A stretch of DNA of 45,004 bases from an uncultured Rikenella sp. (GTDB lineage: Bacteria; Bacteroidota; Bacteroidia; Bacteroidales; VadinHA17). The notes beneath the pieces were generated by a model. The model worked only from the letters and a program-made list of their open reading frames with translations. It did not search any database and was not told the origin of the DNA. The DNA is taken from contig CAZFIF010000002.1 in NCBI GenBank assembly GCA_964519065.1, positions 1-45,004 of the forward strand. Direction: 5' to 3'. Made by a program: the position numbers and the translations under genes. This document shows positions 3,365 through 37,673 of the stretch, in pieces (the first letter of the stretch is position 1; each line of letters begins with the position of its first letter).

Positions 3365-3396
3365 AGATTGGTGGTTTTAGATTATAGATATATAGG

Positions 3397-5346: not shown

Positions 5347-5359
5347 TCAGTGGTAGCGT

Positions 5360-6541
5360 TTACTCGTTATAGCCAAGATCGGTGAGTATCTCCTGCGGTG
5401 TGGCCTCTGTCCCGTATTCCCGCACTTTGCGCTCATGGTAGAAAGCGACCGTGAGATCTGTCCTGTTGGTGATCATACCGTCAGCCAGGGGAGTGGCTTT
5501 TTTGCCCTGGCCGGGGCCGAAATATTTCTCCATCTGCTCAACGGTATTTATAGAATAGATGTTAGCCTTCAGTCCTGCCGCATGTATCTTACCGGCGAAA
5601 GCAGGTGAGAGGCCGTCATTCTTGTCGCTGAGGTTGGTGCCTATAAATTGTGCGCCGCACTCCCTGGCAAAGGCGATGATCTCATCGGTGACCTCCTCCT
5701 TTGCAAATTCGTCTGTTTTGGGATTGCTCACCAGGAAGCTGGCAAGCACCTTTTCGCCAAAGACCCTTTTGATGTTCATCATTCCCTCACGCGAGAAGCT
5801 TTGAAGGAGTATCTTGCCACGTGTGTTTCCCACGTTGACCCTGTCTCCGGACCAGAAGGGCACATCGGCGCTGATCTCTTCTCCCTCCAGCGGGTTCCAG
5901 CCCATGCGCGTCAGCTCATCATATATCTGCTCCTCGATGCCGGGATACTGTTCGGAGATCTTCACCTCGATATAGATGCCGGGCCTGTGGCCGTTGTCTG
6001 CCGGATCAGGCTCATATTCAAAGTGATATATGCCGGACTCGTCCCTGCTTACCATGCGGTTGCCCTCTTCGTCACGCTTAATCTTCTTCCCTTCTGCTAT
6101 GCGGAACACATCTTCAAAGACCAGAACATCGAGGCCGTTGAAGCCCTGACGCGCCTGTCCGGGGTTTTTCACGTTGAAGGCGCTGCCGGCATCGAGCTGC
6201 ATGATCTCTTCCCAGGTGAAGCTGCTGAGGGGATCACCCTCCCTGCCGGGAAACTTCTCTGCGACGTCGGTTGTGCGTTTGAAACTCTTGTCATGCATTA
6301 CCACCAGGAGACTGTCTTTCGTCCTGTGGACATCCAGTTCCATGTAGTCGGCACCGCTGTTGCGCGCCCAGCGAAAGGCCGCCTCGGTAAGTTCAGGTGC
6401 CCAGTAGATTGTTCCCCGGTGAGCAATGACAGCGTTGTCAGGCATATAGCTCTGTACCGTCATGTCACCCGTCACTTTTTTCTGTCCGCACCCGGCCATC
6501 AGTGCCGTGATAAGCATCAGTAGTAATAATTGTCTCTTCAT
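5360..6541 (-). CDS. Glycerophosphodiester phosphodiesterase (GDPD family, GlpQ/UgpQ-like) lipoprotein
   Basis: GDPD catalytic signature IAHRG...YMELDVHRTKDSLLVVMHD. Lipobox LMAGC. The track ORF begins at a GTG (6550). The ATG at 6541 (MKRQLLLL...) gives a canonical signal peptide and is preferred. Confidence 0.88.
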   Translation of the reverse strand: MKRQLLLLMLITALMAGCGQKKVTGDMTVQSYMPDNAVIAHRGTIYWAPELTEAAFRWARNSGADYMELDVHRTKDSLLVVMHDKSFKRTTDVAEKFPGREGDPLSSFTWEEIMQLDAGSAFNVKNPGQARQGFNGLDVLVFEDVFRIAEGKKIKRDEEGNRMVSRDESGIYHFEYEPDPADNGHRPGIYIEVKISEQYPGIEEQIYDELTRMGWNPLEGEEISADVPFWSGDRVNVGNTRGKILLQSFSREGMMNIKRVFGEKVLASFLVSNPKTDEFAKEEVTDEIIAFARECGAQFIGTNLSDKNDGLSPAFAGKIHAAGLKANIYSINTVEQMEKYFGPGQGKKATPLADGMITNRTDLTVAFYHERKVREYGTEATPQEILTDLGYNE

Positions 6542-6553
6542 AGTTGTCACTCA

Positions 6554-7483
6554 TTATTTCGGATTTGCCCTGTTCTCTCTTATCTTCCACTCTCCGGTGT
6601 GATATCTCACCTTCGGATCACGAACATCGTTACATCTGACTATCAGTGCGCCCTCCTTCTCCCAGTACGACCTGACTGTGTGGCCGGCCATGGGGCCGTC
6701 TTCGGGACCGCGGACGGTGACGTCATCAGGATTGACAACTATCTTCAGTCCGACCGACTCGTTCAGCATGTCCATGTCGCCGCGGCTGTTGCCACCGACA
6801 ATCAGGGGCCGTGCCTTGATGAAGGTCTCGATGGTATGTGCCTTGCCGTCATCCTGGGGGATGGGAGGGATGATCTCCCCGGTAGTAACACCCTCCTTAA
6901 CCACGCATTTAGCTCCGACAACATTGGTGACGGGGATGCCGTACTCCTCGGAGACGAACTTCTGGTAGAGGAACTCCGGCGAGGCTGTCAGTATGTATAC
7001 CTCGAAGCCGTACTCCTTAAGGTTGGCCACGAGCTGTTTCATCTCGGGATAGGTCTTGTTCTGGTACGACTCCCTGTAACATTCATAGCCAATGGTCTCT
7101 ATCTCTTCCGGTGAGAGGCCGGCCAGGAAATGGACCCTGTCTTCGACATAGGGCTTGCCAACATTGTTGCCGTCTTTGACCATGCGGTCAAGGATCTTCA
7201 GCTTCTCCCTGGCGTCCCTGTCCTTTCTCTCTTTCAGTACATTATCTGCATAGCGGTAGAGCGCCTCGTCAGCCAGGTAATGCGGAACCTGGCCGAAGGT
7301 GGTGCCGTCACTGTCAAAGACAGCCACCTTTCTTACATTCATGGTTATGGTGGTGTTGAGAAAACCCTCGATGTGGTCGTTGATCTCCTGTGACCAGCCG
7401 GAGATATGCCTGTAGGTCTGCGCATTGAGTGCCGTGAGAAGACCTGCTGAGGTCAGCAGAACGATTGTTAACAGTCGCTTCAT
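6554..7483 (-). CDS. Secreted HAD-superfamily (subfamily IB-like) phosphatase
   Basis: 309 aa. Signal peptide MKRLLTIVLLTSAGLLTALNAQ. HAD motif I VAVFDSDGT. Later GGNSRGDMDML matches motif IV. The substrate cannot be read from the sequence. Confidence 0.75.
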   Translation of the reverse strand: MKRLLTIVLLTSAGLLTALNAQTYRHISGWSQEINDHIEGFLNTTITMNVRKVAVFDSDGTTFGQVPHYLADEALYRYADNVLKERKDRDAREKLKILDRMVKDGNNVGKPYVEDRVHFLAGLSPEEIETIGYECYRESYQNKTYPEMKQLVANLKEYGFEVYILTASPEFLYQKFVSEEYGIPVTNVVGAKCVVKEGVTTGEIIPPIPQDDGKAHTIETFIKARPLIVGGNSRGDMDMLNESVGLKIVVNPDDVTVRGPEDGPMAGHTVRSYWEKEGALIVRCNDVRDPKVRYHTGEWKIRENRANPK

Positions 7484-7495
7484 AACTCTGTTCCT

Positions 7496-8950
7496 TTAGT
7501 GTCCGTTATATGTTGCTCTCTCCGTCTTCCAGGTTGTGGCAGAGAAGAGTGCTGCCAATATGCTGGCAACAATAAAAATTGTGAAGGTGGCTTCCCACCC
7601 CAGGTTAACGTTATCAGCCACAGCGCCGATCATGACCTTTGAGAGGAGGGCGTCACCCAGCAGGTAGCCGAAGAGTCCCACAAAACCTGCGGCTGTCCCT
7701 GCAGCGTTCTTGGGCACCAGGTTGATGGCCTGCACTCCTATCAGCGCCACCGGGCCGTAGATGAAGAACCCTATGGCTATAAGGGCTGAGTAGACCACGG
7801 CCACCCTGGTGGTGTCAGGGTCTGTTGAGAATGCCCCGGAAAGAAATGTGGCAATCGGCACTGCCTTCCAGTAGAGGATGATGCTGAGCAGCACCAGCAC
7901 CATGAAGATCACGTTTGCCGGTGCACACCTGCCCTTGAACAATTTGGAGGAGATCCAGCCGATGAGTATCATTCCCGGCACACCGGCGTAGTTATGGAGC
8001 GAGAATGCCATCTTGCTCTGTTCGCTGGTGAGCAGTCCTGCCTCTTCGCAGTATGTCGGTGCCCAGTCGCCGATACCATACCTTATTAGATATACGAATA
8101 CATTGGCCAGGGCTATAAGCCAGAGGATTTTATTCCTGAAGATATATTTTACAAAGAGCTCCTTGACGGGTATCTTCTTGTCGGAGCTCATCTCCTTCTG
8201 TGCCGGAGTGTCATTCCGGTATTTGTCTATGGCGGGCAGTCCGCACGACTGTGGGGTATCCCTCAGGGCCCACCAGCAGAAGAGGGCAATGAGGAGGGCC
8301 ACGGCACTTGGCAGGACAAACACTGCTCTCCAGCTCTGTTCAACCATTATGCCGCCGCCGATGTCGGCAACGAAGAGTCCGCCGAGCAGCACGGTGCCCC
8401 AGGCGGCCAGGTTGCCCATCAGTCCGCTGCCCACGGTGTGGGAGGTGTTCCAGATGCCCATCTTGAAGCTGCGCTCATTGTGCGAGAACCAGTGCACCAT
8501 TATCCTTCCGCAGGGAGGCCACCCCATACCTGCCAGCCATCCTATTACCAGCATGAAGGCAAAGATTATGGCCACTGAACTTGTTGCAAAGGGGAAGAGG
8601 CCGACGCACATCATCAGTGAGGCTGAGAGCACCAGTCCTATCACCAGGAACTTCCTGGCGTCCGACCTGTCAGAGAGCGCTCCCATGAGGAACTTGCTGA
8701 AGGCGTAGGCGATGGAGATGGCTGAGAGTGCTATGCCCAGCTGCAGCTTGGTATATCCCAGCCCGCCGTTCTCCAGGGGCTGTATCATGCCCGGGATGGC
8801 GAGGGCGAGGTTCTTCCTTACAAGATAATAGGCTGCATATCCCAGGAAGGCGCCAATGAATACCTGCATGCGGAGTCTTTTATAAGCCGGATCAATCTTG
8901 TCAGCCGGCAGTGGCTCCTTGTATGGCGGTGGTTTCAGAAAGTTGATCAT
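7496..8950 (-). CDS. glpT: Glycerol-3-phosphate/phosphate antiporter (MFS, organophosphate:Pi antiporter family)
   Basis: 484 aa and multi-TM. The N-terminus (KPPPYKEPLPADKIDPAYKRLRMQVFIGAFLGYAAYYLVRKNLALA) and GALSDRSDARKF closely follow E. coli GlpT as I recall it (...IDPTYRRLRWQIF...YYLVRKNFALA...SDRSNPR). Confidence 0.9.
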   Translation of the reverse strand: MINFLKPPPYKEPLPADKIDPAYKRLRMQVFIGAFLGYAAYYLVRKNLALAIPGMIQPLENGGLGYTKLQLGIALSAISIAYAFSKFLMGALSDRSDARKFLVIGLVLSASLMMCVGLFPFATSSVAIIFAFMLVIGWLAGMGWPPCGRIMVHWFSHNERSFKMGIWNTSHTVGSGLMGNLAAWGTVLLGGLFVADIGGGIMVEQSWRAVFVLPSAVALLIALFCWWALRDTPQSCGLPAIDKYRNDTPAQKEMSSDKKIPVKELFVKYIFRNKILWLIALANVFVYLIRYGIGDWAPTYCEEAGLLTSEQSKMAFSLHNYAGVPGMILIGWISSKLFKGRCAPANVIFMVLVLLSIILYWKAVPIATFLSGAFSTDPDTTRVAVVYSALIAIGFFIYGPVALIGVQAINLVPKNAAGTAAGFVGLFGYLLGDALLSKVMIGAVADNVNLGWEATFTIFIVASILAALFSATTWKTERATYNGH

Positions 8951-9058
8951 AGGCGTGTCAGTTTGAGTTGCTCCCTCTGTTGTCTACGGGGCCCCAATAT
9001 TGTCAATCTTTCGTTTCTTTCAGTCAGTTTATGATTAAGATTATGTTACATCGTCCTG

Positions 9059-10828
9059 TCACCTGCCCGGGTTGTCCCACGGCCATGGTTTTGCCTTGAG
9101 GCGCAGGGCCTCCTCCTCCCACCTGGCAGCCATTTTCCTTACCCTGTCAGGCTGTTCTGCGGCCAGGTTGTTTGTCTCAGAGGGATCCTTCTCCAGGTCG
9201 TAGAGCTCCCAGCGCTCTTCGTCGTCGGGGGTGAAATACATTGGCGTTGCGGCCCTGGCCACAAGCTTCCACCTGCCCATGCGTATGGCCCTGTTGGCTT
9301 CATGCTCCCAGAAGAGGAACTCGCGGTCAAGCTTTTCTCCCCTGAGGGCAGGCAGCAGGCTTACTCCTTCCGGGGGAATGGTCTTTGTCCCGTGGAAATC
9401 TTCGGGATAGCTGGCGCCGGCCAGCTCCAGGCAGGTAGGCATTATGTCTATGAGATGACCCGGCTCCCTGATCATGGTGCCTTTTTTCTCCAGCCCTTCA
9501 GGCCAGTGCACTATCATGGGGGTGGAGATGCCTCCCTCATGCACCAGTGACTTGTAGAGCCTGAAGGGGGTGTTGCTGACGTTGGCCCACTCTTCACCGT
9601 AGCCCAGCCAGCTGTCGGCAGGGCCTGCCATCACCCCTCGGCCTGTGCGGATGAACCTGCCGTCACGCGTGTATTCCGGTTTCCTGACCTGCAAAACCTG
9701 GTCAGCAGGAAAAGGCCTGAGCACCTTCTGCTCTTCGGTGAGCGGCATGGCCATCCTGTTGGTGAGGACAGGCTCGGCACAGCCACCGTTATCCTGCATA
9801 TATAATATAACTGTATTGTCAAGCTCACCTTTCTCCTCCAGCGCTGCGATGATCCTCCCAATACCCTGGTCCATGATATCGATCATGGCGGCATAGGTCT
9901 CCATGCGTCGCACCTGCCACTCCTTCATGGGCTCATCCTTCCACGGGATGATTGTCTCTGTCCTCTCGCTGAGCCTGTGTGCCGGGGTGATGACACCCAG
10001 CTCCTTCTGCCTGTTGAAGCGCAGGACCCGCAGTGAGTCCCACCCGATGTCATATACACCCCTGTATTTTTCTATCGCCTCCTCCGGGGCGTGCAGGGGC
10101 CAGTGCGCTGCATAGTAGGCTACATAGAAGAAGAAGGGTTTGCCGTCAGGGTGCTCCCTGATGAACTTCACAGCAGTGTCACTGATGGCATCAGTATAGT
10201 AAAAGCCTTCGCCGGGAGGGATGAAGGTGTTGTTGCTGAGCAGGGTGAAGGGGTCCCAGTAACTGCAGGAGCCGCTAAGGTTTCCAAAGAAGCGGTCGAA
10301 GCCACGCTGCAGTGGCCAGTTGCTCTTGTCGTCAGCAAGCTCCTCCGGGGTGCTGGCATTGTTCATACCGTAGAGATGCCATTTGCCGGTCATATAGGTG
10401 GAGTAGCCCGACTCCCGCAGCACTTCGGCGAGGGTGGCGGCATCCTTGTTCAGGTCATCGAGATAACCGGGCTCATCCCACAGCGGCCTGGTGGCAAGAT
10501 GCCCCATGGCTGCCTGGTGGGGATACAGACCGGTGAGGAGGGTGGCGCGGCTGGGACTGCAGCGGGCGGTGTTGTAGAAGTTGGTGAAGCGGACACCCCC
10601 GGCAGCCAGCCGGTCAAGATTTGGTGTCTTTATCTCTGACCCGAAGGAGCCGATGTCGGAATAGCCGATGTCATCCGACAGGATGACGATAATGTTCGGC
10701 TGCTTTGCCTCTGTCGGCCTGTTGCCCGTGGAGCATGAGACCAGCACCAGACAGGTCGCCACAGGCAACAGCATCGCTGCCAGTGCTGCCCGCAGTGCTC
10801 TTCGCGGACCGGTTCTCTTTATCATCAT
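9059..10828 (-). CDS. Type I (formylglycine, Cys-type) sulfatase-family lipoprotein
   Basis: 589 aa. Lipobox LVSC. NIIVILSDDIGYSD metal-binding start. Canonical CSPSRATLLTG (C-x-P-x-R) formylglycine motif. GKWH downstream. Confidence 0.9.
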   Translation of the reverse strand: MMIKRTGPRRALRAALAAMLLPVATCLVLVSCSTGNRPTEAKQPNIIVILSDDIGYSDIGSFGSEIKTPNLDRLAAGGVRFTNFYNTARCSPSRATLLTGLYPHQAAMGHLATRPLWDEPGYLDDLNKDAATLAEVLRESGYSTYMTGKWHLYGMNNASTPEELADDKSNWPLQRGFDRFFGNLSGSCSYWDPFTLLSNNTFIPPGEGFYYTDAISDTAVKFIREHPDGKPFFFYVAYYAAHWPLHAPEEAIEKYRGVYDIGWDSLRVLRFNRQKELGVITPAHRLSERTETIIPWKDEPMKEWQVRRMETYAAMIDIMDQGIGRIIAALEEKGELDNTVILYMQDNGGCAEPVLTNRMAMPLTEEQKVLRPFPADQVLQVRKPEYTRDGRFIRTGRGVMAGPADSWLGYGEEWANVSNTPFRLYKSLVHEGGISTPMIVHWPEGLEKKGTMIREPGHLIDIMPTCLELAGASYPEDFHGTKTIPPEGVSLLPALRGEKLDREFLFWEHEANRAIRMGRWKLVARAATPMYFTPDDEERWELYDLEKDPSETNNLAAEQPDRVRKMAARWEEEALRLKAKPWPWDNPGR

Positions 10829-10861
10829 TGGTGCTTTTATCGGAATTACTGTTTTGTTCTT

Positions 10862-12433
10862 CTATTCCATTACATAACCCCTGGCCATCTCGGAAAAATC
10901 CTTTACCTGCTGCTCTTCCCATGCTTTGTCCCTGCCCAGCTCGGCGGCCATGATCGCTGCCACCACGGGTGCCAGTTCTATGGCAGCCCTGGCATCGAGA
11001 TAGAGTACTCTTACCCGGCGTGCCAGCACATCATCGACGGTGCGGGCCATCTCCCGCCTTACTGCCCATACCACCTCGGCAACGGTAAAGTCAGCACAGC
11101 CGTTGAGCTTCTCAGCAAAGGCGGGGTTCTCCTGATGCATCTTCTGTATCTCCTCACGGTCGCTGCCGTATATGTATCGCCTGTCACTCCTGTCAGGATT
11201 CTCATAGTAACCGTGGATCTTCAGCGTCTTTGTGGTGCACTTTCTGAAGCCCAGCTTGCCGGTCTTCACCGCCAGGTTGACGGTATCCTCCGCCATCTTC
11301 CTGTAGGTGGTCCACTTGCCTCCGGTGATTGTCACCAGTCCTGACGGTGACACCAGCATCTTGTGGCTGCGGGATATCTCTTTCGTTTTGGCCCCGTCAG
11401 CCCCGTGTTTTGGCGCTGCCAGCGGCCTCAGCCCGGCAAAGACGCACAGCACGTCGCTGCGCTGCGGTTTCTTTGCAAGGTATCGGCCGGCAGTCTCAAG
11501 GATGAAGTCGACCTCCTCGTCAAGAGCCCTGGGCTCCAGCACAAACTCCTTCACAGGCACGTCAGTGGTGCCGAGGATGACCCTGTCATGCCATGGCACC
11601 CCGAACATCACCCTGCCGTCGCTGGTCTTGGGTATCATGATGGCATCGTCGCCTCCCAGGAAGCTGCTGTCGACCACCAGGTGCACACCCTGACTGGGCC
11701 TGACGAGGGGCTGCTGCTCCGGGTTGTCCATCCTTATTATATCGTCAACGAAGATGCCGGTGGCATTGATGATGCACCTGCCTTCAGCCGTGAAACCGGC
11801 GCCGTCGAGCTCATCAACGGCTGCCACGCCGCTGACCCTGCCCCCGGCATTCTTGAGCAGATCCGTTACCCGGACATAGTTGACCACCGTGGCTCCCTGC
11901 TCTATGGCCGTCTGCATCATGTTCACCGCCAGACGCGAGTCGTCAAACTGGCCGTCATGGTATATCACTCCTCCTTTCAGCTTCTCACGGACGATCTGAG
12001 GTATAGCCTTTATTACATCTCTTTTTTTCATTGGCAGCGAACGTCCGAGGCTCATGCCGCCAGACAGGAGATCATAGAGGGTGAGCCCCAGTGTGTAAAA
12101 AGGCTTCTCCCACCACCTGTAGTTGGCTATGATGAAACGCTGGTTCTTCACCAGGTGAGGCGCATTCTTCCTCAGATAACCTCTCTCACGCAGCGCCTCA
12201 CGCACCAGGGCCACATCACCCTTCTGCAGGTACCTCACCCCGCCATGCACCAGCTTGGTGCTGCGCGCCGAGGTGGCCTTGGCAAAATCCGACTGTTCCA
12301 GCAACAGGGTACTGTAACCCCTTGCCGCAGCATCAACGGCAACGCCTAACCCGGTTGCCCCTCCGCCGATAACGATGAAGTCCCACTGCTTTCCGGGGCG
12401 CTTCAGCCGACTTAAAAATTCCTCTCTTTCCAA
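10862..12433 (-). CDS. glpD: FAD-dependent glycerol-3-phosphate dehydrogenase
   Basis: 523 aa. Rossmann motif DFIVIGGGATGLGVAVDAAARG, then SSRSTKLVHGGVRYL-type segment (SARSTKLVHGGVRYL). The only in-frame start ahead of the Rossmann fold is TTG at 12433. Confidence 0.9.
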   Translation of the reverse strand: MEREEFLSRLKRPGKQWDFIVIGGGATGLGVAVDAAARGYSTLLLEQSDFAKATSARSTKLVHGGVRYLQKGDVALVREALRERGYLRKNAPHLVKNQRFIIANYRWWEKPFYTLGLTLYDLLSGGMSLGRSLPMKKRDVIKAIPQIVREKLKGGVIYHDGQFDDSRLAVNMMQTAIEQGATVVNYVRVTDLLKNAGGRVSGVAAVDELDGAGFTAEGRCIINATGIFVDDIIRMDNPEQQPLVRPSQGVHLVVDSSFLGGDDAIMIPKTSDGRVMFGVPWHDRVILGTTDVPVKEFVLEPRALDEEVDFILETAGRYLAKKPQRSDVLCVFAGLRPLAAPKHGADGAKTKEISRSHKMLVSPSGLVTITGGKWTTYRKMAEDTVNLAVKTGKLGFRKCTTKTLKIHGYYENPDRSDRRYIYGSDREEIQKMHQENPAFAEKLNGCADFTVAEVVWAVRREMARTVDDVLARRVRVLYLDARAAIELAPVVAAIMAAELGRDKAWEEQQVKDFSEMARGYVME

Positions 12434-12638
12434 TTTGTCAGAAGCTTAATTATGATATATGTCAGAAAAACAGAGTAAAATTATTACAACATTTTTTTAA
12501 ATCAAAACAAAAATGAAAGAAAAAATAATAAATCGTAATATTTTTAACTTTTTTAATATTTCGGGTTGCTTGGCAGTTATTGCTTTTAATCTTATCTTTG
12601 GGGTTATACCAATAAATCCGGCTGCCGGTCCGAGAATC

Positions 12639-13403
12639 ATGAGAAACATTGCGCAGCGCCATAAGATAATACTGGCTGAACTTGAAAAGGAGGGTTATGT
12701 GTGGGTTCATAACCTGAGTGAACGTCTGGGGGTTTCTGAGGTTACGATCCGAAAGGATCTGAAAGAACTGGAGCAGAGGAGGCTGCTCATCCGCAACCAC
12801 GGCAGTGCCAGCCCGGTAAGTTCACTCACCATCGACCGCCACATCGACGAGAAGGAGAAGGTACAGGTGAATGAGAAGATCAGGATTGCCGAGGCAGCAA
12901 ACCGGTTGCTGGAGAAAAACGACAGGATCATCATCGCATCGGGAACCACGGTGCTTACATTTGCCCAGCATATCACGATAACCGATCCCATCACCGTCAT
13001 TACACCCTCAGTGAAAGTATCGCTGATACTGAGTTACAAGCCGAACATCGACATAATTCAACTGGGAGGGGCGCTTCGCAGGAGCTCCGCCTCGGTCATC
13101 GGGCCATATGCCGAGACCCTCCTCACGGAGATGATGTGCAGCAAGCTCTTCATAGGCATTGACGGTCTCGACCTTGACATAGGGCTTACGACAAGCAATA
13201 TAGCAGAGGCTCACCTGAACCAGTACATGATCAACGCAGCGCAGGAGGTGATAGTGCTTGCCGATTCGACCAAGTTCGGCAGGAGAGGCTTCGGCAAGAT
13301 ATGCAAGCTGAACAAGGTACATCACATCATCACCGACAGGAATGCCCCGGGAAATATCATACAGGTAATTCGTGATGAGGGAATAAAGGTCTCCCTTGTA
13401 TGA
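12639..13403 (+). CDS. DeoR-family transcriptional repressor (GlpR-like)
   Basis: 254 aa from the ATG at 12639 (MRNIAQRHKIILAELEKEGYVWVHNLSERLGVSEVTIRKDLKELE is the DeoR wHTH). C-terminal sugar-phosphate-binding DeoR_C (IIIASGTTV...LFIGIDGL...VLADSTKFG). The track start at 12513 adds 42 AT-rich, low-complexity residues and is unlikely. Confidence 0.87.
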   Translation: MRNIAQRHKIILAELEKEGYVWVHNLSERLGVSEVTIRKDLKELEQRRLLIRNHGSASPVSSLTIDRHIDEKEKVQVNEKIRIAEAANRLLEKNDRIIIASGTTVLTFAQHITITDPITVITPSVKVSLILSYKPNIDIIQLGGALRRSSASVIGPYAETLLTEMMCSKLFIGIDGLDLDIGLTTSNIAEAHLNQYMINAAQEVIVLADSTKFGRRGFGKICKLNKVHHIITDRNAPGNIIQVIRDEGIKVSLV

Positions 13404-13450
13404 CAATATGTTGCAGAGACTGAATGAATCATGCCTCTGTGGCCGCTTCG

Positions 13451-13463
13451 GCCTCGGGGGTTG
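13451..13463 (+). terminator. Short GC hairpin after the DeoR gene (weak terminator candidate)
   Basis: GGCCG-ctt-CGGCC, 48 nt after the stop at 13403. The stem is only 5 bp and no clean U-tract follows. Confidence 0.2.
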
Positions 13464-13475
13464 TATATATTTGTA

Positions 13476-13502: not shown

Positions 13503-16289
13503 ATGCCAGGAAAATCATTACTGACATTTATTGCAGCCCTGCTGCTTGTCGCTTTTACCGGATGTTCAACCTCGAAGATGGCTGTCACCGGCGACCCGTC
13601 AGGCCGCACTCCCGCAGCAGAGCGTGAGTTCCGCGCTGCCTGGGTAGCCACCGTTGCCAACATCAACTGGCCCAGCAAGCCGGGCCTCTCCGTTGAGGAG
13701 CAGAAGAGTGAGGCAGTTGCCCTTCTCGATCTCCTCCATAAGAACAATTTCAACGCGGTGGTCTTCCAGGTCAGACCGCACTGCGATGCCATGTACAGGA
13801 GCGAGCTCGAGCCATGGTCTTACTACCTTACCGGCGAGCAGGGCAAGGCCCCGGTCCCGTATTATGACCCGCTCCAGTTCTGGATCGATGAGGCACATGC
13901 CAGGGGGATCGAGATGCATGCCTGGCTCAATCCTTACCGCGCACATCATCCTGCCGGCGGGGAGGTGACTGATGCCTCCATCGTCAGAAAGCGCCCTGAC
14001 CTGGTGCTGAAGCTCGAGGTGGAGAATTACTGGTGGATGGACCCTGCCCTGAAAGGCACGCAGGATCACTCTTATAATGTTGTCATGGATCTCGTGCGCA
14101 GGTATGACCTTGACGGGATACACTTCGACGACTACTTCTATCCCTATCCTGACTACAACAACTTCAAGGATTTTCCCGATGATGAGAGCTGGCAGGCATA
14201 CCGGGCCGGCGGCGGAAAACTGTCGCGCTCCGACTGGAGAAGGGATGCAGTAAATGTCTTCATTGAAAGGCTTTACAGGGGTATCAAGGCCGAGAAGCCG
14301 TGGGTTAAGTTCGGTCTTAGTCCCTTCGGCATATGGCAGCCCTATAATCCACCTGCCATCGGCGGCGGCTTCAACCAGCATGAGACCCTCTATGCCGATG
14401 CCAGGCTGTGGCTCAACAAAGGGTGGATCGACTATTATTCGCCACAGCTCTACTGGCCTATTAACCAGTTTGCACAGAGCTACCCTGTGCTGCTGGGCTG
14501 GTGGAAGGATCAGAATATCAAGGGCCGGCACCTCTGGCCTGGAATAAACCTGAGCAACCAGGCAGCGGGAGGGGCAGCCGACGAGGCCGTAAACAAGATA
14601 ATGGTTACACGCGGCATGTTGCCCGAAAGCCCCGGCGTGGTGCACTGGAGCATAGGCCCGCTGGTCAGGAGCCCGGAGCTTGTTAAGGCTGTGGCCGATG
14701 GACCCTACAGGAGGCAGGCACTGGTGCCGCCCTCACCGTGGCTCGACAACAAGGCACCGGCAGCGCCGTCGGTGACAAAGAGACCGGAGGGAGATGCGCT
14801 GAAGTTATCATGGACCCACGGTGATCCTTCCGATGTGAGCCGCTGGGTAGTATATTACAGGTACGGATCACAGTGGAACCAGAATATCCTCGGTCCGGGC
14901 GCCGCATCTGATATCATCCCTGCCTTCACCGTCAACCGCGCTTTCCTGGCACGGACAGAGCCGGAGAAGGTGACAGGTTTGGAGCAGGCGCTCATTCCTC
15001 TTGACAGCGTGGCAGTGTCGGCCGTGGACCGTTACGGCAACGAAAGCCCGCCGGTGAAGATGGCCGTGACGGAGTTCACCTTCGCCGATGCCCCCGCCCT
15101 TGAGGGGGTGTTGACTGCATTCTACGCCGAGAGGCTGAAGCCTCCGGTGCCGGTGCCGGCAGTGACTCCGGGTGTTGACGTCCTTGTTGAGGAGCACCTT
15201 GAGATGATCGCCGGCAAGAGGGTGGGACTGATAACCAACCCGTCAGCTGTGGGTGCGGATATGCGCAGCACTGTTGACATCCTCGCCGGCACGCCGGGGG
15301 TAAACCTGGTGGCACTCTTCGGCGCCGAACACGGCATCAGGGGAGCACTGCACGGCAGGATACAGGCCAGCGGTGAGCCCGACCCGGTGACGGGCATACC
15401 TGTCTACAGCCTCTACGGCGACACCTATTCCCCGAAAGCGGAGTGGCTCGACAGCATCGATGTGATGCTGTTCGACATACAGGGTGTGGGCTCGGCATGG
15501 TATACCTTCAAGTTCTCCATGTCTCATGCCATGGAGGCATGCGCCAGGGCCGGCATACCGTTCATAGTACTCGACAGGCCTAACCCGCTGGGCGGCAGCG
15601 TGGTGGAAGGACCGATGCATGACACCATCAGGATGTACCGGCACCGCATACCGCTGCGCCATGGCATGACCTATGGCGAGCTGGCAACCATGTGGAACGA
15701 TACCGAGGGGTACGGCGCTGAACTGACGGTGATAAAGATGAAGGGATGGCGCCGCAGCATGATGTGGGATGAGACAGGACTGATGTGGGTGATGCCTTCA
15801 CCCAACATAGACAACTGGGAGACAGCGGTGGTCTACCCGGGACAGTGTCTTTTTGAGAGAACCAACATGTCTGAGGGCAGGGGCACCACAAAGCCGTTCC
15901 TCCTTACCGGCGCACCATGGGTGGATGCCGGCAAGGCGGCTGAGGACCTTAACTCAAGAGGGATAGCCGGGGCTTACTTCAGGCCGGTATACTTTGTTCC
16001 GCGGTCTGCAGGTACAGGCTACAACCGCAGCAGCAAGCCGTGGAACGAGATGTGCGGCGGCGTGGAGATAATGCTGACAGACCCCGCAGCCTACCGTTCG
16101 GTGGAGGCTTCACTCCATATCATCGACGCATACAGGAAGACAAATCCTGACTCCCTGGTGTGGTCGCCGCCGCTGCTGATGCGCAGGCTTAACGAGCCCG
16201 GCGTCACCGTGGAGGAGGTGGTGAAAGCCTGCCAGGATGATGTGGCTGAATTTATGGAAGTGAGACAAAAATACCTGCTGTACAGATAA
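13503..16289 (+). CDS. Fusion lipoprotein with an N-terminal GHL10 (DUF187/YngK-like) hydrolase domain and a C-terminal DUF1343/NamZ exo-beta-N-acetylmuramidase domain
   Basis: 928 aa. Lipobox AFTGC. The N-terminal ~380 aa are GHL10-like (REFRAAWVATVANINWPS...NAVVFQVRP...GIEMHAWLNPY...IHFDDYFYP). The C-terminal ~370 aa from about nt 15170 are DUF1343-like (GKRVGLITNPSAVG...LFGAEHGIRG...DVMLFDIQGVG...FIVLDRPNP). Confidence 0.85.
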   Translation: MPGKSLLTFIAALLLVAFTGCSTSKMAVTGDPSGRTPAAEREFRAAWVATVANINWPSKPGLSVEEQKSEAVALLDLLHKNNFNAVVFQVRPHCDAMYRSELEPWSYYLTGEQGKAPVPYYDPLQFWIDEAHARGIEMHAWLNPYRAHHPAGGEVTDASIVRKRPDLVLKLEVENYWWMDPALKGTQDHSYNVVMDLVRRYDLDGIHFDDYFYPYPDYNNFKDFPDDESWQAYRAGGGKLSRSDWRRDAVNVFIERLYRGIKAEKPWVKFGLSPFGIWQPYNPPAIGGGFNQHETLYADARLWLNKGWIDYYSPQLYWPINQFAQSYPVLLGWWKDQNIKGRHLWPGINLSNQAAGGAADEAVNKIMVTRGMLPESPGVVHWSIGPLVRSPELVKAVADGPYRRQALVPPSPWLDNKAPAAPSVTKRPEGDALKLSWTHGDPSDVSRWVVYYRYGSQWNQNILGPGAASDIIPAFTVNRAFLARTEPEKVTGLEQALIPLDSVAVSAVDRYGNESPPVKMAVTEFTFADAPALEGVLTAFYAERLKPPVPVPAVTPGVDVLVEEHLEMIAGKRVGLITNPSAVGADMRSTVDILAGTPGVNLVALFGAEHGIRGALHGRIQASGEPDPVTGIPVYSLYGDTYSPKAEWLDSIDVMLFDIQGVGSAWYTFKFSMSHAMEACARAGIPFIVLDRPNPLGGSVVEGPMHDTIRMYRHRIPLRHGMTYGELATMWNDTEGYGAELTVIKMKGWRRSMMWDETGLMWVMPSPNIDNWETAVVYPGQCLFERTNMSEGRGTTKPFLLTGAPWVDAGKAAEDLNSRGIAGAYFRPVYFVPRSAGTGYNRSSKPWNEMCGGVEIMLTDPAAYRSVEASLHIIDAYRKTNPDSLVWSPPLLMRRLNEPGVTVEEVVKACQDDVAEFMEVRQKYLLYR

Positions 16290-16308: not shown

Positions 16309-18171
16309 ATGAAAAAGCTTACTGTAATATTTCTCGTGGCAACCGCAATGCTTGCCGGTTGCAATACAGCCAGGAAGGCACAGCAGACTGCCGTCCCTGA
16401 TCCGGCGGCTGCCGCTGCAGAAACCCTGGCAGCCATTCCATGCAGGTGCGACAGCGCAGTTAACAGTTCGCCGTGGGTTAAGTTCCTTAGAGTGCCGGAG
16501 CAGGTTACTTACATGCCCCAGTTCGATGTCCTTTGTAAAAGTGAATACCCCGCTGCCGTAACTATAAACGGAGAGAGAGTGAAACAATACAAAACGGGGA
16601 TATTCTTCACAACCGTAAAATTCAACGAGGGAGTGAACAAAATAACGGCTGAGGCAGTGTATCCTGACGGCCGGACAGCTCTCTGCGAACATGTGTTAAT
16701 CTATGAAAAGAGGGACATGACCAGGCCTGTCTACCCGCTGTGGGTCGACAACCGGTCGGTGGAGCCTGCCGCTGACATGGAGCTGCTGCCTGATGAGGTT
16801 GTAAAGGTGAGCTTCCGGGGATCGAAGGGGCAGAACGGCTTTGTTAATGTTCAGCCGGGCAGGACCACTCTTGCGTGCCTGCGCACCGACTTTGACGATT
16901 ACAGTATCTATACGGCGGAGCTGCCCCTGCGCGGCCTGGCCGTGGGAAGGCCTTACACGCTGATGTTAAGATTGGCGCCTGTCGCCGGCGCGCCGGCAAA
17001 GGGCTTATATGTGCCTGACCTGCAGAGGATAGTGACCGTAAGGCAACCGGAGGATTTCCCGCTGGTGAAGGTGAAGAATGAATTCTCAAGGCTTACCTAT
17101 AACCTGGGTTCACCCAGGCTGGGCGGCCCGATACGTGCTGAATTCGGTCCTGGTGTTGTGCTTAAGACCAGCGGCAGAATAGGTGATAACTACAGGGTAA
17201 GGCTCAGCAATGTGGAGTCCGGTATAATTAACAAGGATGACGTTGAGATTATGAGTGGCAGCAAATTACAGCCCTCGTACACGGTGACAAGCATGACATG
17301 TGTTCCGGGTGACAGCGCCGACATCGTCTCAATACCCTGGCTCGAACCTGTTCCCTATGAGGTCTATCCCGACCCGGACCAGAAAAGACTGGTGATAACA
17401 CTGTTCGGTGCTGAGTCGGCCTCGACATGGGTCACACACCGTAAGGGTTGCAGGATGATTGACAAGCTTACATGGGAGCAGGTCACCCCTGAGACCTTCC
17501 GCGTATATGTCAACCTGACCAGTGAGAATATATGGGGCTACGACATCAAACCATCGGGCAGGAGCCTGGTGATGACTGTGAAGTATCCTCCGGTTTATGA
17601 CCTTGCCGGTGAGAAGCCCATGGCAGGGCTGAAGATTGCCATTGAGGCGGGACACGGCGGCGATAATACCGGGGCCATAGGGCTGTCAGGACTGGTAGAG
17701 AAGGATATCAACCTCGACCTCTCTTTGAGGCTGGGAGAGCTCTGCGCCGCGATGGGAGCAGAGGTGATACAGGTGCGCGATTCTGACAGGTACATGCTTC
17801 TCACTGACAAGCGCCGCATAGCCATTGAGTCGGGCGCTGACATGCTGATTAGCATACATGCCAACGCCGGTGGCAGGGGTTATCTCTCCGTGGCAGGGAC
17901 CAGCACATACTGGCACAATCCCTTCTGGGCTCCGCTGGCGCAGGCTATCTATGACAGGATGCTGGAGACAGGACTGGCCGAGTTCGGCGTGGTGGGCTCA
18001 TTCAACTACACGGTTACCAGGGCCTCACAGCTGCCTGCCGTGCTGGTGGAACAGGCCTTCATGTCTCACGCCGAAGACGAGGAGAAGCTGGCTGACCCCG
18101 CCTTCCGCCAGCTGGAGGCAGAGAAGATCTGCGAGGGGATAATGGACTACCTGGATGGGTTAAAGAGGTAA
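16309..18171 (+). CDS. N-acetylmuramoyl-L-alanine amidase (Amidase_3) lipoprotein with a large uncharacterised N-terminal region
   Basis: 620 aa. Lipobox MLAGC. The C-terminal ~180 aa are LKIAIEAGHGGDNTGAIG...DMLISIHANA...LPAVLVEQAFMSH (Zn ligands H/E/H of Amidase_3). I recognise no family in the N-terminal ~440 aa. Confidence 0.85.
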   Translation: MKKLTVIFLVATAMLAGCNTARKAQQTAVPDPAAAAAETLAAIPCRCDSAVNSSPWVKFLRVPEQVTYMPQFDVLCKSEYPAAVTINGERVKQYKTGIFFTTVKFNEGVNKITAEAVYPDGRTALCEHVLIYEKRDMTRPVYPLWVDNRSVEPAADMELLPDEVVKVSFRGSKGQNGFVNVQPGRTTLACLRTDFDDYSIYTAELPLRGLAVGRPYTLMLRLAPVAGAPAKGLYVPDLQRIVTVRQPEDFPLVKVKNEFSRLTYNLGSPRLGGPIRAEFGPGVVLKTSGRIGDNYRVRLSNVESGIINKDDVEIMSGSKLQPSYTVTSMTCVPGDSADIVSIPWLEPVPYEVYPDPDQKRLVITLFGAESASTWVTHRKGCRMIDKLTWEQVTPETFRVYVNLTSENIWGYDIKPSGRSLVMTVKYPPVYDLAGEKPMAGLKIAIEAGHGGDNTGAIGLSGLVEKDINLDLSLRLGELCAAMGAEVIQVRDSDRYMLLTDKRRIAIESGADMLISIHANAGGRGYLSVAGTSTYWHNPFWAPLAQAIYDRMLETGLAEFGVVGSFNYTVTRASQLPAVLVEQAFMSHAEDEEKLADPAFRQLEAEKICEGIMDYLDGLKR

Positions 18172-18181: not shown

Positions 18182-19492
18182 TCAGGAATCTATCCTGTGT
18201 ATCTCTGCTCCCAGGCTATTAAGTCTCCTGTCAAGGTACTGATACCCGCGGTCTATCTGCTCGATGTTGTGAATCAGGCTCTTGCCTTCTGCACTCAGCG
18301 CGGCAATAAGCAGGGCAACGCCTGCCCTGATGTCAGGACTGTTCATCGTTATACCCCGCAACCGTTGACGACGCTCAAGGCCTATAACGGTTGCCCGGTG
18401 CGGATCACATAATATGATCCGTGCACCCATGTCTATCAGCTTGTCAACAAAAAAGAGACGGCTTTCAAACATCTTCTGATGTATCAGCACGCTGCCCCTG
18501 GCCTGAATGGCAACAACCAGAAGGACACTTATCAGGTCAGGAGTGAGTCCCGGCCAGGGGTGATCATATATTGTAAGGATAGAACCGTCAAGGTTATTCT
18601 GAATTTCGTATATATCCTGTTCAGGGATAACAATATCGTCTCCCTCAGTATGAAAGTCCACCCCCAGCTGCATGAACTTCTGCGGGATAACTCCCAGGTA
18701 AGGGATGCCTGCATTCTTTATCCTTAATGATGATCCGGTTATTGCAGCAAGACCTATGAATGAGCCCACCTCAATCATGTCAGGCAGTATCCGATGCCGG
18801 CATCCGCGGAGAGATTTTACTCCCCTTATCTTCAGATAGTTGGATTTAATACCGCTGATATTTGCTCCCATGTTATTGAGCATGAGGGAGAGCTGCTGTA
18901 TATATGGTTCGCAAGCCGCATTGTATATGGTGGTCTCGCCCTCTGCCATCACAGCCGCAAACAGCATGTTGGCCGTACCAGTAACAGAGGGTTCATCAAG
19001 AAGGATGTCGGTTCCTTTCAGGGATTTGGCGCTCAGTCTGAAGAAGCCACGCTCGCTGTCATATTCTGCTTTTCCTCCCATCTGTTCAAACCCGGCAATA
19101 TGAGTATCCATTCTTCTTCTGCCTATCTTGTCTCCCCCGGGTCGCGGGATAACTGAGATCCCGAACCTCGTCAGCAGGGGACCGGCAATCATTACCGATC
19201 CTCTCAGCATGTTTGCCTTCATCAGAAACCCATGATCGAACAGTATATCCGTATTTACGGTTTCCGCCCTGAAAGCATAAGTATCCTCATTGATACGCTT
19301 CACTTCCACACCCAGGTCACCAAGTATCTCTATCAGAAGTTTCACATCAATGATATCAGGAATATTTGAAATGACAACCTCTTCAGAAGTGAGAAGCACG
19401 GCACACAGTACCTGAAGCGCCTCATTCTTTGCTCCCTGGGGTGTGATAACCCCGTGAAGCTTGTTGCCGCCGGTGACTTCAAACGATTTCAC
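18182..19492 (-). CDS. murA: UDP-N-acetylglucosamine 1-carboxyvinyltransferase
   Basis: 436 aa. MKSFEVTGGNKLHGVITPQGAKNEALQ matches the MurA N-terminus. RPGGDKIGRRRMDTH carries a conserved-loop Asp in place of the catalytic Cys of E. coli MurA (the Cys/Asp position). GTG start at 19492. Confidence 0.95.
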   Translation of the reverse strand: MKSFEVTGGNKLHGVITPQGAKNEALQVLCAVLLTSEEVVISNIPDIIDVKLLIEILGDLGVEVKRINEDTYAFRAETVNTDILFDHGFLMKANMLRGSVMIAGPLLTRFGISVIPRPGGDKIGRRRMDTHIAGFEQMGGKAEYDSERGFFRLSAKSLKGTDILLDEPSVTGTANMLFAAVMAEGETTIYNAACEPYIQQLSLMLNNMGANISGIKSNYLKIRGVKSLRGCRHRILPDMIEVGSFIGLAAITGSSLRIKNAGIPYLGVIPQKFMQLGVDFHTEGDDIVIPEQDIYEIQNNLDGSILTIYDHPWPGLTPDLISVLLVVAIQARGSVLIHQKMFESRLFFVDKLIDMGARIILCDPHRATVIGLERRQRLRGITMNSPDIRAGVALLIAALSAEGKSLIHNIEQIDRGYQYLDRRLNSLGAEIHRIDS

Positions 19493-19580
19493 TGTTCAGT
19501 TTTTTTGGGAAACAGCAATTAGCATCCACAAAACTAAGAAGATCTTTATTATAAGGATTTATTTTTTTACTATTGTCTGC

Positions 19581-20612
19581 ATGATTGAATACTGGAAAAA
19601 TATCAGCCTTCGACCATTTAATACTTTCGGTATCGACGTGAAGGCAGACCATCTCTTTCATCTCAGGAGCCGGGAAGAGCTTTTGGAAATTCTTAATCAT
19701 CCTGTTTTTAATGAAGTCTCAGGTGACATGAATAATCTGCTGATCCTTGGGCAGGGCAGTAATATTCTGTTGACACACGACTACAGGGGAGTGGTTGTCA
19801 GGAATGAGATAACCGGGATCCGTCTTATTGAAGAGAGCGAGGAGAGTGTGGTGCTTGAAGCGGGAGCAGGGGTGATCTGGCAGGAGCTGGTTGAATACGC
19901 TGTCAGCCATAACCTGGCAGGGATTGAAAACCTGACCCTTATCCCGGGGACGGTCGGTGCGGCCCCGATACAGAATATTGGTGCCTATGGCGTTGAGGCA
20001 GCCGATGTGATCGTCAGGGTCAATGGTTTTCACCTGGAGAAGAAAGAATGGCTTACGCTCGAGAACAAAGAATGCGGGTTCGGATACAGGGATAGCATTT
20101 TCAAGCGTGAACTCAGGAATAAAGTACTTATCACTTCAGTTGTTTTGAGGCTCTCAAAGGTCTTTCGGCCAAAGCTGGACTATGGGGGCATACAGGAGGA
20201 GCTGGGGAAAAGAGATATCACAGATCCTTCCCTACGGGAAATATCAGATGTTATCGCACAGATAAGAAAATTAAAACTACCCGACCCCGTCACACTCGGC
20301 AATGCCGGCAGTTTCTTTAAGAATCCAACAGTTGGTGAGGCGGAGTTCATAGCTCTCGTCAGGTCATTTCCGGATATCAGGTATTACATGCAGGGCGGAC
20401 TTTACAAGATACCTGCCGGGTGGCTTATTGAGCAGGCAGGATGGAAGGGTTACCGGCTGCATGATGCCGGGTGCTATGACAGACAGGCGCTGATACTGGT
20501 GAATTACGGCAGGGCGACAGGTGAAGAGATACTTGATCTTTCAGAGAAAATTAAGACATCCGTATTTGACAAATTCAGAATTGTCATTGAACGTGAGGTA
20601 AACGTTATCTGA
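19581..20612 (+). CDS. murB: UDP-N-acetylenolpyruvoylglucosamine reductase (type I)
   Basis: 343 aa from the ATG at 19581. SLRPFNTFGIDVKA, LILGQGSNIL, NLTLIPGTVGAAPIQNIGAYGVE, CGFGYRDSIFK and NAGSFFKNP are collinear with E. coli MurB. The track start at 19461 overlaps murA and is rejected. Confidence 0.93.
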   Translation: MIEYWKNISLRPFNTFGIDVKADHLFHLRSREELLEILNHPVFNEVSGDMNNLLILGQGSNILLTHDYRGVVVRNEITGIRLIEESEESVVLEAGAGVIWQELVEYAVSHNLAGIENLTLIPGTVGAAPIQNIGAYGVEAADVIVRVNGFHLEKKEWLTLENKECGFGYRDSIFKRELRNKVLITSVVLRLSKVFRPKLDYGGIQEELGKRDITDPSLREISDVIAQIRKLKLPDPVTLGNAGSFFKNPTVGEAEFIALVRSFPDIRYYMQGGLYKIPAGWLIEQAGWKGYRLHDAGCYDRQALILVNYGRATGEEILDLSEKIKTSVFDKFRIVIEREVNVI

Positions 20613-23596: not shown

Positions 23597-23760
23597 CTGT
23601 TAAAATATTAATGAGATTTCCCTGCCCGATGCGCGGATCTTCCCGTGACACTCTGTTAGGATCATCAATATTGTGTTAAATATAAGGTATTTATAAAAAT
23701 AAATACATTTTGACATGCCGAAATTAAGTCAAATAACAAAAAGTACAAAGAAATAGTACG

Positions 23761-23838
23761 GTTACATTTTTGTTACACATAATTAAATCTGTTGACTATA
23801 TTTACCATTAATATTACGAATTTGTAAAATAGTAACAC
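23761..23838. promoter_or_regulatory. GTTAC/GTAAC motif copies upstream of nikR (possible NikR operator half-sites)
   Basis: GTTACA at 23761-23766, GTTACAC at 23772-23778, and the inverted GTAACAC at 23832-23838 directly abutting the nikR ATG (23840). Half-site sequence resembles the GTGTTAC-N13/14-GTAACAC NikR box predicted by comparative genomics, as I recall it. The spacing here is not canonical. Confidence 0.3.
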
Positions 23839-23839
23839 G

Positions 23840-24262
23840 ATGCCGGTAATCCGATTTGGCGTTTCCCTTGAGAAGGAGCTGCTTGATGCCCTTGACGGTT
23901 TTGTTGAAGAGAATCTCTTTGTCAACCGCTCCCAGGCCATAAGGCATCTCATCAGCAACGGTCTGGCCGAAAACAAGTGGCAGTGCAACAATGAGGTGGC
24001 AGGGTCACTGACCATGATATACGAACATCACCGCAGGGGGCTGGTGGCACAGCTAACCCGCCTGCAGCATGAGAGGAACAACCTGATACTGTCGTCTCTT
24101 CATCTCCACCTTGATCACGGACAGTGTATGGAGCTGCTTGCTGTCAGGGGGCGGGCGGCGGAGCTGACCGCACTGGCCGACAAACTGAGGAGCGTTAAGG
24201 GCGTCAGGTATGCCAGGCTGACCATGACACGTCTGACGGGCGAGGATCATCATGAGGAATAG
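23840..24262 (+). CDS. nikR: Nickel-responsive repressor NikR (ribbon-helix-helix plus ACT-like metal-binding domain)
   Basis: 140 aa. The RHH N-terminus is RFGVSLEKELLDALDGFVEENLFVNRSQAIRHLI. The C-domain YEHHRR...LHLHLDHGQCMELLAVRG is collinear with E. coli NikR YEHEKR...LHVHINHDDCLEIAVLKG (His/His/Cys Ni ligands conserved). Confidence 0.9.
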   Translation: MPVIRFGVSLEKELLDALDGFVEENLFVNRSQAIRHLISNGLAENKWQCNNEVAGSLTMIYEHHRRGLVAQLTRLQHERNNLILSSLHLHLDHGQCMELLAVRGRAAELTALADKLRSVKGVRYARLTMTRLTGEDHHEE

Positions 24263-30110: not shown

Positions 30111-30138
30111 ATTTTTTCGTAACTTACTTACCGGCTGA

Positions 30139-37609: not shown

Positions 37610-37673
37610 CATATTTTTCGTTGTTCCGTCAAAATAAGGTGTATATATCATATATTCAGTCATATAACTTTAA

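Follow-up and report, generated by a model that had tools for sequence, protein, structure and literature searches.

A Bacteroidales lipoprotein combining a GHL10 domain with a NamZ (GH171) module, and its linked amidase: a candidate system for dismantling peptidoglycan through denuded glycan

We analysed a 45,004-nucleotide (nt) stretch of contig CAZFIF010000002.1 (assembly GCA_964519065.1, uncultured Rikenella sp.), hereafter the window, in which a single forward-strand gene at 13503..16289 encodes a 928-amino-acid (aa) lipoprotein that combines a GHL10 domain with a complete NamZ module, and is followed by the gene of a second lipoprotein with an amidase domain. On balance, and with some reserve, we favour the view that the two genes form an operon of periplasm-facing lipoproteins which would dismantle peptidoglycan by way of denuded, that is peptide-free, glycan, with the GHL10 domain acting in the manner of Clostridioides difficile Cwp19.

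Architecture and distribution of the fusion

The open reading frame (ORF) starts with ATG and encodes 928 aa with 0 internal stops. Pfam profiles match GHL10 (PF02638) at aa 42-341 (E 2.5e-60, 204.7 bits against a cut-off of 27.9, profile positions 1-286 of 311), NamZ_N (PF07075) at aa 574-772 (E 1.9e-69, 233.6 bits, positions 1-202 of 203) and NamZ_C (PF20732) at aa 777-927 (E 6e-36, 124.9 bits, positions 2-152 of 152). Sequence searches of the PDB aligned aa 32-396 with the catalytic domain of Cwp19 (5OQ2, E 3e-70), aa 553-834 with 4K05 (E 8e-69) and aa 565-928 with 4JJA (E 4e-40). The original prediction, made from the letters of the window, had described a 928-aa GHL10-NamZ lipoprotein with its domains at nt 13620-14700 and 15170-16286 and a middle region of some 150 aa, and had proposed a profile search as a check; the search confirmed both domains, and the predicted boundaries were right to within about 10 codons. 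The features listed below also draw on a model built with AlphaFold 2 (AF2) from 30 homologues, with local confidence expressed as the predicted local distance difference test (pLDDT).

13503..16289, forward strand: 928-aa lipoprotein made up of GHL10, beta-sandwich, linker and NamZ (GH171) (ORF, Pfam, PDB search, homologues)
13503..13565, forward strand: signal peptide and lipobox, Cys21 (read from the translation, homologues)
13596..14690, forward strand: GHL10 TIM-barrel catalytic domain, aa 32-396 (Pfam, Cwp19 alignment, Foldseek)
14760..15068, forward strand: Ig/FN3-like beta-sandwich, aa about 420-522 (AF2 secondary structure, pLDDT 80-93)
15069..15158, forward strand: fusion junction and linker, aa 523-552 (translation, alignment, AF2)
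15159..16286, forward strand: NamZ (GH171) two-domain module, aa 553-928 (Pfam, PDB 4K05 and 4JJA)

The N-terminus reads MPGKSLLTFIAALLLVAFTG followed directly by the lipobox cysteine at residue 21 (the last residues before it being LLLVAFTG), and the lipoboxes of the homologues are canonical (LAGC, IAGC or VAGC). The residues after Cys21 are S-T-S-K, without an acidic cluster, and the relatives are likewise rich in Ser, Thr and Lys at this point. The surface-export signal of Bacteroidota lipoproteins is presumably a set of acidic residues after the lipobox cysteine, which this protein does not have; since these residues are Ser/Thr/Lys-rich and not acidic, surface export seems less likely and the lipoprotein is tentatively predicted to face the periplasm.

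In the model the region between the two glycosidase parts folds into a beta-sandwich with some eight strands (aa 423-521, pLDDT 80-93); next comes a linker of variable sequence with a helix at aa 533-545 and then the Pro-rich stretch KPPVPVPAVTPG (aa 546-557); the linker or Ig-like region foreseen from the sequence is thus a sandwich plus a Pro-rich linker. The sandwich belongs to the GHL10 module, because stand-alone GHL10 relatives end just past it, the tblastn matches of such genes to the fusion stopping at aa about 515-527. The full-length model has a mean pLDDT of 64 and a predicted template-modelling score (pTM) of 0.44, and was dropped as a guide to inter-domain geometry. A Foldseek search with this model, which is of moderate quality, ranked Cwp19 (5OQ3) first (E 1.2e-27, TM-score 0.78 on the target), followed by 4K05 and 4JJA.

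All of the best 120 database homologues carry GHL10, NamZ_N and NamZ_C (67-98% identity, mostly 926-928 aa), a complete fusion ORF is present in more than 40 independently assembled genomes in a scan of one genome per GTDB species, and an alignment of 30 fused homologues shows an in-frame junction whose length is similar in every one. The same ORF in so many independent genomes and in every one of the best homologues refutes the idea that a frameshift or an assembly error joined two genes, an explanation with practically no chance of being right; on this point too the fusion described by the original prediction is genuine. Every one of the carriers is a Bacteroidales metagenome-assembled genome with the NCBI label Rikenellaceae or Rikenella. 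The exact 928-aa protein has no entry in the contig index.

HMMER, run exhaustively against 1.84 billion cluster representatives (about 15 billion proteins), returned 14,940 matches, and among the best 150 of these GHL10 and NamZ are combined in two 50%-identity clusters: the fusion's own family (P0040) and a divergent 895-aa protein of 42% identity from a single metagenome contig (P0121). Thirteen other long matches in multiple stretches, scanned with Pfam, were all NamZ-NamZ tandems or GHL10 proteins with two or three copies of the domain. Since a fused protein with even modest similarity in each half would have ranked among the listed matches, the fusion is a rare one, limited in essence to a single lineage, and the notion of a frequent GHL10-NamZ design was rejected. 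The survey of fused and adjacent occurrences proposed with the original prediction therefore found the former in these two clusters and none of the latter: no NamZ match lay within the fetched flanks of any of 30 stand-alone GHL10 loci, and the 3 nearest stand-alone NamZ representatives, all on short contigs, had no GHL10 neighbour.

In the divergent protein (L079:5720-8407) the GHL10 half is well conserved and the NamZ half is without the glutamate of the xEHG motif and the arginine of the GRGT motif described below; its locus has a ROK-family neighbour and no amidase. Among the other matches, P0185, P0226, P0265, P0127 and P0129 carry two NamZ modules in tandem together with SLH, LysM or Ig-like domains, and in three of these proteins one copy is canonical (GEHG and EGRGTT) and the other degenerate (EFG or GYG, and GWGTT).

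Active sites and the adjoining amidase

The GHL10 domain is 40% identical to Cwp19 over 349 aligned residues and 34% identical to Escherichia coli DigH over 332 aa (E 2e-59), the digH product of strain MG1655 (YddW, b1491) being itself a GHL10 protein (E 6e-136) with a lipoprotein signal. The structure of Cwp19 has been solved and its active-site residues proposed (PMC5765458). In our alignment W36, Q77, W127, R132, D195, D196 and Y197 of Cwp19 correspond to W47, Q89, W141, R146, D209, D210 and Y211 of the fusion, and S250, Q295, Y297 and F367-S368 to S273, Q315, Y317 and W382-S383. All the proposed residues except Gly328, which aligns ambiguously beside an indel, are thus identical or conservatively replaced; the mapped residues are invariant in 30 fused homologues, with W382 nearly so. 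A GHL10 domain deprived of its catalytic acids and acting in binding only, named with the original prediction as a finding that would speak against it, is accordingly not what the sequences display.

Cwp19 was shown in 2018 to be a lytic transglycosylase on peptidoglycan, with products that carry 1,6-anhydro-N-acetylmuramic acid (1,6-anhydroMurNAc) and some that end in reducing MurNAc (PMC6016235); it therefore cuts bonds between MurNAc and N-acetylglucosamine (GlcNAc). It is the sole GHL10 enzyme with mapped products, and after its cut the new non-reducing end carries GlcNAc. E. coli YddW received the name DigH once it proved to localise to the division site and to cleave strands without stem peptides (PMC12288456 and PMC7391070, which both cite Yakhnina and Bernhardt 2020); it is a hydrolase specific for denuded glycans, and its target bond is given as 'either glucosaminidase or muramidase' (PMC12288456). 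The earlier statement that the substrate of GHL10 is not established has been overtaken by these two enzymes, both of which cleave peptidoglycan glycan. The accompanying proposal that this domain acts on the glycan backbone is supported by its 40% and 34% identity to them, and had already been published for the family.

In Bacillus subtilis NamZ the putative catalytic Glu92 lies at the tip of beta-2, and Arg279 is contributed by the C-domain (PMC8054146). We place their equivalents at E609 (in the xEHG motif, here AEHG) and R793 (in GRGT), an equivalence that follows from domain boundaries and not from the B. subtilis sequence; both are kept in about 118 fused homologues and also in stand-alone NamZ representatives. 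As judged from these conserved residues, both glycosidase domains look active. NamZ accepts only MurNAc with a peptide-free lactyl group (bioRxiv 10.1101/2021.12.02.470905). The two structures matched by the module are Bacteroides fragilis homologues, 4K05 being BfNamZ1 and 4JJA BfNamZ2, and the NamZ N-domain of the fusion is 45% identical to the former and 36% to the latter.

The second gene of the pair is:

16309..18171, forward strand: 620-aa lipoprotein with a C-terminal Amidase_3 domain, nt 17635-18141 (Pfam, PDB alignments)

It starts 19 nt after the stop codon of the fusion gene, as the original prediction had said of a MurNAc-L-Ala amidase gene, and has a lipobox of its own; the Amidase_3 match covers aa 443-611 (E 1.6e-33, 116.6 bits against a cut-off of 27). 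H449 (in GHGG), E464, H517 (in SIHAN) and E581 are all present, and we take these to be the zinc ligands and the catalytic residue. The domain aligns unbroken to CwlV and to 5EMI and in two pieces to AmiA and AmiC. An inserted regulatory, autoinhibitory helix is, we assume, the feature that separates AmiA and AmiC from CwlV-type amidases; since the alignment is in one piece with the latter and in two with the former, the window's amidase is consistent with an enzyme that is without this helix. No confident Pfam domain was found in the N-terminal region of about 430 aa (16309-17634), where the only match is a weak one to a Glucodextran_B-like beta-sandwich. The same region is kept in GHL10-linked amidases of distant lineages, whose whole length is 620-920 aa. 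The amidase gene lies 3' of the fusion gene in each of the 42 fused loci whose DNA continues beyond the stop codon.

Unfused lipoproteins of about 510-540 aa, 54-68% identical in the GHL10 part, are the nearest relatives of the N-terminal half; they come from Ignavibacteria-type genomes, Melioribacter, Balneolaceae, Chitinophagaceae, Chryseobacterium and others. In four of their loci (L048, L051, L052, L054) the same long amidase follows GHL10, and in two further loci of the survey the two are a single 1355-aa ORF, on a Saprospiraceae chromosome (L045:7947-12014) and in Flexithrix dorotheae DSM 6795 (L046:7947-12014; representative P0122). Moreover, L048, L051 and L054 share the gene order GHL10, long amidase, NagK-like kinase and AmpG-family transporter of the major facilitator superfamily (MFS), with short gaps or overlapping genes (L051:7950-14800 and likewise in the other two). 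The kinase is of the BadF/BcrAD family with N-acetylglucosamine kinase as its best NCBIfam match, and the best NCBIfam match of the transporter is the AmpG muropeptide permease family, both below the curated cut-offs. Upstream of the Ignavibacteria-type string, and divergent from it, lies a Reg_prop/Y_Y_Y histidine kinase gene (L051). Because the GHL10-amidase pairing recurs in distant unfused lineages and NamZ joins it only in the fusion lineage, the comparison points to GHL10 plus amidase as the ancestral unit, in a peptidoglycan-salvage setting, to which NamZ was added in one Bacteroidales lineage. Many other stand-alone GHL10 relatives, for instance in Chryseobacterium and Balneolaceae, have unrelated neighbours.

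Predicted function and its alternatives

NamZ needs peptide-free MurNAc, DigH prefers peptide-free strands and an amidase of this kind makes them, so that, by analogy with these characterised proteins, all three components would make or require peptide-free glycan and the pair may be read as a module for denuded glycan; the neighbouring amidase thus says more than the original prediction drew from it. The favoured scheme would then run as follows: 1) The Amidase_3 lipoprotein would strip the stem peptides off MurNAc. 2) The GHL10 domain would cut the denuded strands internally, most likely at the MurNAc-beta-1,4-GlcNAc bond if its homology to Cwp19 is a guide. 3) The tethered NamZ module would trim the oligosaccharides from the non-reducing end, a step that needs a free lactyl carboxylate on MurNAc. 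4) Permeases of the AmpG or MurT type, encoded elsewhere, would import the products for recycling or catabolism; the peptidoglycan taken apart may come from the cell itself or from other organisms. As a cut between MurNAc and GlcNAc leaves a GlcNAc end, NamZ would either release GlcNAc-MurNAc, as does NamZ1 of Tannerella forsythia, or release MurNAc after a separate hexosaminidase has taken the terminal GlcNAc. In either case the fusion would keep the exo-enzyme beside the chain ends made by the endo-enzyme. The sequences themselves show the architecture, the homology to characterised enzymes, the kept catalytic residues, the strict amidase linkage and, for unfused relatives, the linkage to a sugar kinase and an AmpG-like permease, whereas substrate, order of action, bond specificity and cellular location are deduced.

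Several points weigh against this scheme. The function assigned to the fusion rests on homology and context, and the placement of the two active sites is not readable from the weak AF2 model. The chemistry of GHL10 varies, Cwp19 being a lytic transglycosylase and DigH a hydrolase described as either a glucosaminidase or a muramidase, and starch is the reported substrate of DogH, a distant member of GHL10 with about 21% similarity to Cwp19 (PMC9967864). The NamZ subtype is ambiguous, the module being nearer to 4K05 yet keeping the GRGT arginine where 4K05 has GVGY; this arginine is shared with 4JJA and the stand-alone NamZ representatives. With such mixed signals, similarity to 4K05 or 4JJA was set aside as a route to the subtype, monosaccharide versus disaccharide release being unreadable from sequence, in line with the warning of the authors of the NamZ1/NamZ2 study that sequence does not reveal specificity. 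A uracil-DNA-glycosylase neighbour common to P0156 and T. forsythia NamZ2 was also dropped as a subtype clue, being too weak. Finally, domain scans of the window detected no permease, MurK or MurQ gene.

The most serious alternative, which we regard as doubtful, makes the GHL10 domain an N-acetylglucosaminidase, which either cleaves GlcNAc-MurNAc bonds or strips off terminal GlcNAc, after which a monosaccharide-type NamZ takes off the MurNAc. The protein would then be a self-contained alternating depolymerase, uniting what NagZ and NamZ do in B. subtilis, with the amidase in the role of AmiE, and the gene set does parallel the amiE-nagZ-namZ operon of that organism (PMC8054146). Natural strands start with GlcNAc, so that a monosaccharide-type NamZ needs a remover of GlcNAc, and NagZ and NamZ have been published as having to alternate. 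The GRGT arginine shared with 4JJA fits such a NamZ, since 4K05 (BfNamZ1), which clusters with the disaccharide-releasing T. forsythia NamZ1, has GVGY, and the wording on DigH quoted above (PMC12288456) leaves a glucosaminidase among the options. Set against this, Cwp19, with which the fusion has 40% identity and nearly all active-site residues in common, cuts MurNAc-GlcNAc (PMC6016235), and the GH20 hexosaminidase encoded upstream in five related loci could remove GlcNAc instead. The same evidence bears on the suggestion in the original prediction that GHL10 exposes the MurNAc on which NamZ acts: this needs a GlcNAc-MurNAc cut, for which the two options published for DigH leave room, whereas homology to Cwp19 favours the opposite.

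Two further readings were weighed. In the first, only one of the glycosidase domains is catalytic, the other serves for binding or targeting, and the protein is a single enzyme with a carbohydrate-binding partner, a state of affairs approached by the divergent 895-aa protein, with its conserved GHL10 part and the two signature residues lost from its NamZ half, and by the tandem NamZ-NamZ proteins with one degenerate copy; yet the fusion and about 118 close homologues keep the proposed catalytic and active-site residues of both domains with next to no variation, and the Pfam scores of the two domains, over almost complete profiles, lie far beyond the cut-offs, which makes this reading very improbable here. 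We hold it to be equally remote that GHL10 targets some different glycan, for instance an alpha-glucan or an exopolysaccharide, in place of peptidoglycan, and that its link to NamZ and the amidase is functionally meaningless. The size and diversity of the family (14,940 representative matches), the starch hydrolysis reported for DogH and the unrelated neighbours of many stand-alone relatives would allow it, but the link to a MurNAc-L-Ala amidase recurs in distant lineages both as adjacency and as an independent fusion, both of the closest characterised relatives are peptidoglycan enzymes, and DogH is far removed from Cwp19.

A broader proposal concerns the genes around the pair. On the opposite strand upstream of it, the window encodes a SusC-like TonB-dependent receptor, a metallophosphoesterase, a GlpQ-like glycerophosphodiester phosphodiesterase (GDPD), a haloacid dehalogenase (HAD) hydrolase, GlpT, a sulfatase-family protein and GlpD, and the clade has such glp genes (32-13403 in the window) beside the fusion-amidase pair in three arrangements, in which GDPD, GlpT, GlpD and DeoR lie upstream, as in the window, or GlpK follows the amidase, as in L008, L016, L025, L032 and L042. 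In addition, a GH20 hexosaminidase gene stands just upstream of the pair in L016, L018, L019, L040 and L043, with GDPD also present in L018 and L019. Because of this flanking, the pair could be the peptidoglycan arm of a locus for Gram-positive wall debris, in which the glp genes would break down MurNAc-linked teichoic acid of the poly(glycerol-phosphate) type and GHL10 would be the missing GlcNAc-side glycosidase, alternating with NamZ to turn denuded strands into monosaccharides; the receptor, the metallophosphoesterase, GDPD, the HAD hydrolase, GlpT, the sulfatase-family enzyme, GlpD and DeoR may be its other members. We rate this proposal as improbable: the glp association may mean that teichoic acid and peptidoglycan are digested together, and it may also be leftover synteny.

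Genomic neighbourhood and relation to known systems

The gene of a DeoR-family regulator (12513-13403) lies upstream of the fusion gene, and two candidate signals stand between them:

13446..13463, forward strand: short G+C-rich hairpin with a T-rich tail, a possible terminator of the DeoR gene (terminator scan, consensus match only)
13466..13473, forward strand: TATATTTG, a match to the -7 box TAnnTTTG, 37 nt before the start codon (read directly)

TAnnTTTG is what we take to be the Bacteroidetes -7 promoter consensus, and 22 of 30 related loci have the motif between -36 and -42. The conserved box, together with the hairpin that separates the pair from the DeoR gene, suggests that fusion and amidase probably have a promoter of their own. 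DeoR as a dedicated regulator of the pair was not supported, being missing from divergent fused loci and set apart here by the hairpin and the promoter box.

Downstream, murA (reverse strand) and murB (forward strand) occupy 18182-20612, between the amidase and a nitroreductase gene, in the window and in 11 related loci; a functional link was rejected, as they are absent from this position in L001, L002, L003, L012 and L024. The listed murB ORF (TTG at 19461) overlaps the start of murA, and its true start is probably later, since the family profile aligns only from about aa 45. A 650-nt gap at 23597-24251 precedes an uptake system of Peripla_BP_2, FecCD and an ABC ATPase; no Rfam family, the cobalamin riboswitch among them, reached its gathering score anywhere in the window, and Rfam and tRNA scans of its whole length found nothing. 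At 28913-34515 a 1458-aa hybrid regulator (Reg_prop, Y_Y_Y, HisKA, response regulator, AraC HTH) is encoded divergently from a gene for a GH130/GH32-like beta-propeller, the usual signature of polysaccharide utilisation regulators; this region is unrelated to the fusion. From 34600 to 45004 the G+C content drops from about 0.50-0.60 to 0.34-0.41 over genes for a histidine kinase, a sigma-54-dependent response regulator, two MacB/FtsX-type permeases, an ABC ATPase and a TPR protein. No tRNA was found at the boundary of this stretch, and it is possibly an acquired island or a chimeric join.

The searched literature contained no description of the GHL10-NamZ fusion or of the GHL10-amidase partnership, and no relevant paper naming both families. 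The families entered peptidoglycan biology recently, Cwp19 in 2018, DigH in 2020 and NamZ in 2021, and the central deduction that GHL10 cuts peptidoglycan re-derives published knowledge: the fusion confirms more than it discovers, and reveals neither a new enzyme class nor a new substrate. What it offers is independent genomic support, outside E. coli, for the denuded-glycan route, in that a DigH-type domain is joined to an exo-muramidase for peptide-free MurNAc with an amidase always adjoining. It may also serve as a handle on the specificity of DigH-type enzymes, as the ends that NamZ can use constrain the products of GHL10. The GHL10-amidase pairs of Bacteroidota and Ignavibacteria-type genomes, the 1355-aa fusion and the operon with kinase and AmpG-like genes further tie the DigH family to peptidoglycan salvage besides cell separation.

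Among related systems, the 1355-aa GHL10-amidase protein shares the GHL10 plus beta-sandwich module at 68% identity, and its amidase is 51-53% identical to that of the window overall (43-44% in the N-terminal region, 68-72% in the catalytic domain); unlike in the window, the partner fused to GHL10 is the amidase, with no NamZ gene within 8-kb flanks. Cwp19 is the best structural match and resembles the fusion in the identity and active-site residues given above; it differs in being an S-layer protein of a Gram-positive organism, with three CWB2 repeats that bind the wall (PMC6016235), in acting on peptidoglycan that still bears its peptides and in having no exo-glycosidase fused to it. Both Pfam halves of NamZ/GH171 are complete, as in B. 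subtilis NamZ, T. forsythia NamZ1 and NamZ2, BfNamZ1 and BfNamZ2, and a functional tie to an amidase is shared with B. subtilis NamZ of the amiE-nagZ-namZ operon (PMC8054146), whereas NamZ proteins known so far are secreted on their own and measure about 390-420 aa; in the fusion a GHL10 lipoprotein module takes the place of their signal peptide. DigH of E. coli is a single-domain protein of 439 aa without the beta-sandwich or NamZ, its gene is not beside an amidase gene and its role is septal; like the fusion, it has a GHL10 domain behind a lipoprotein signal, and it acts on the denuded glycans that amidases produce (PMC12288456), which matches the strict amidase linkage of the fusion.

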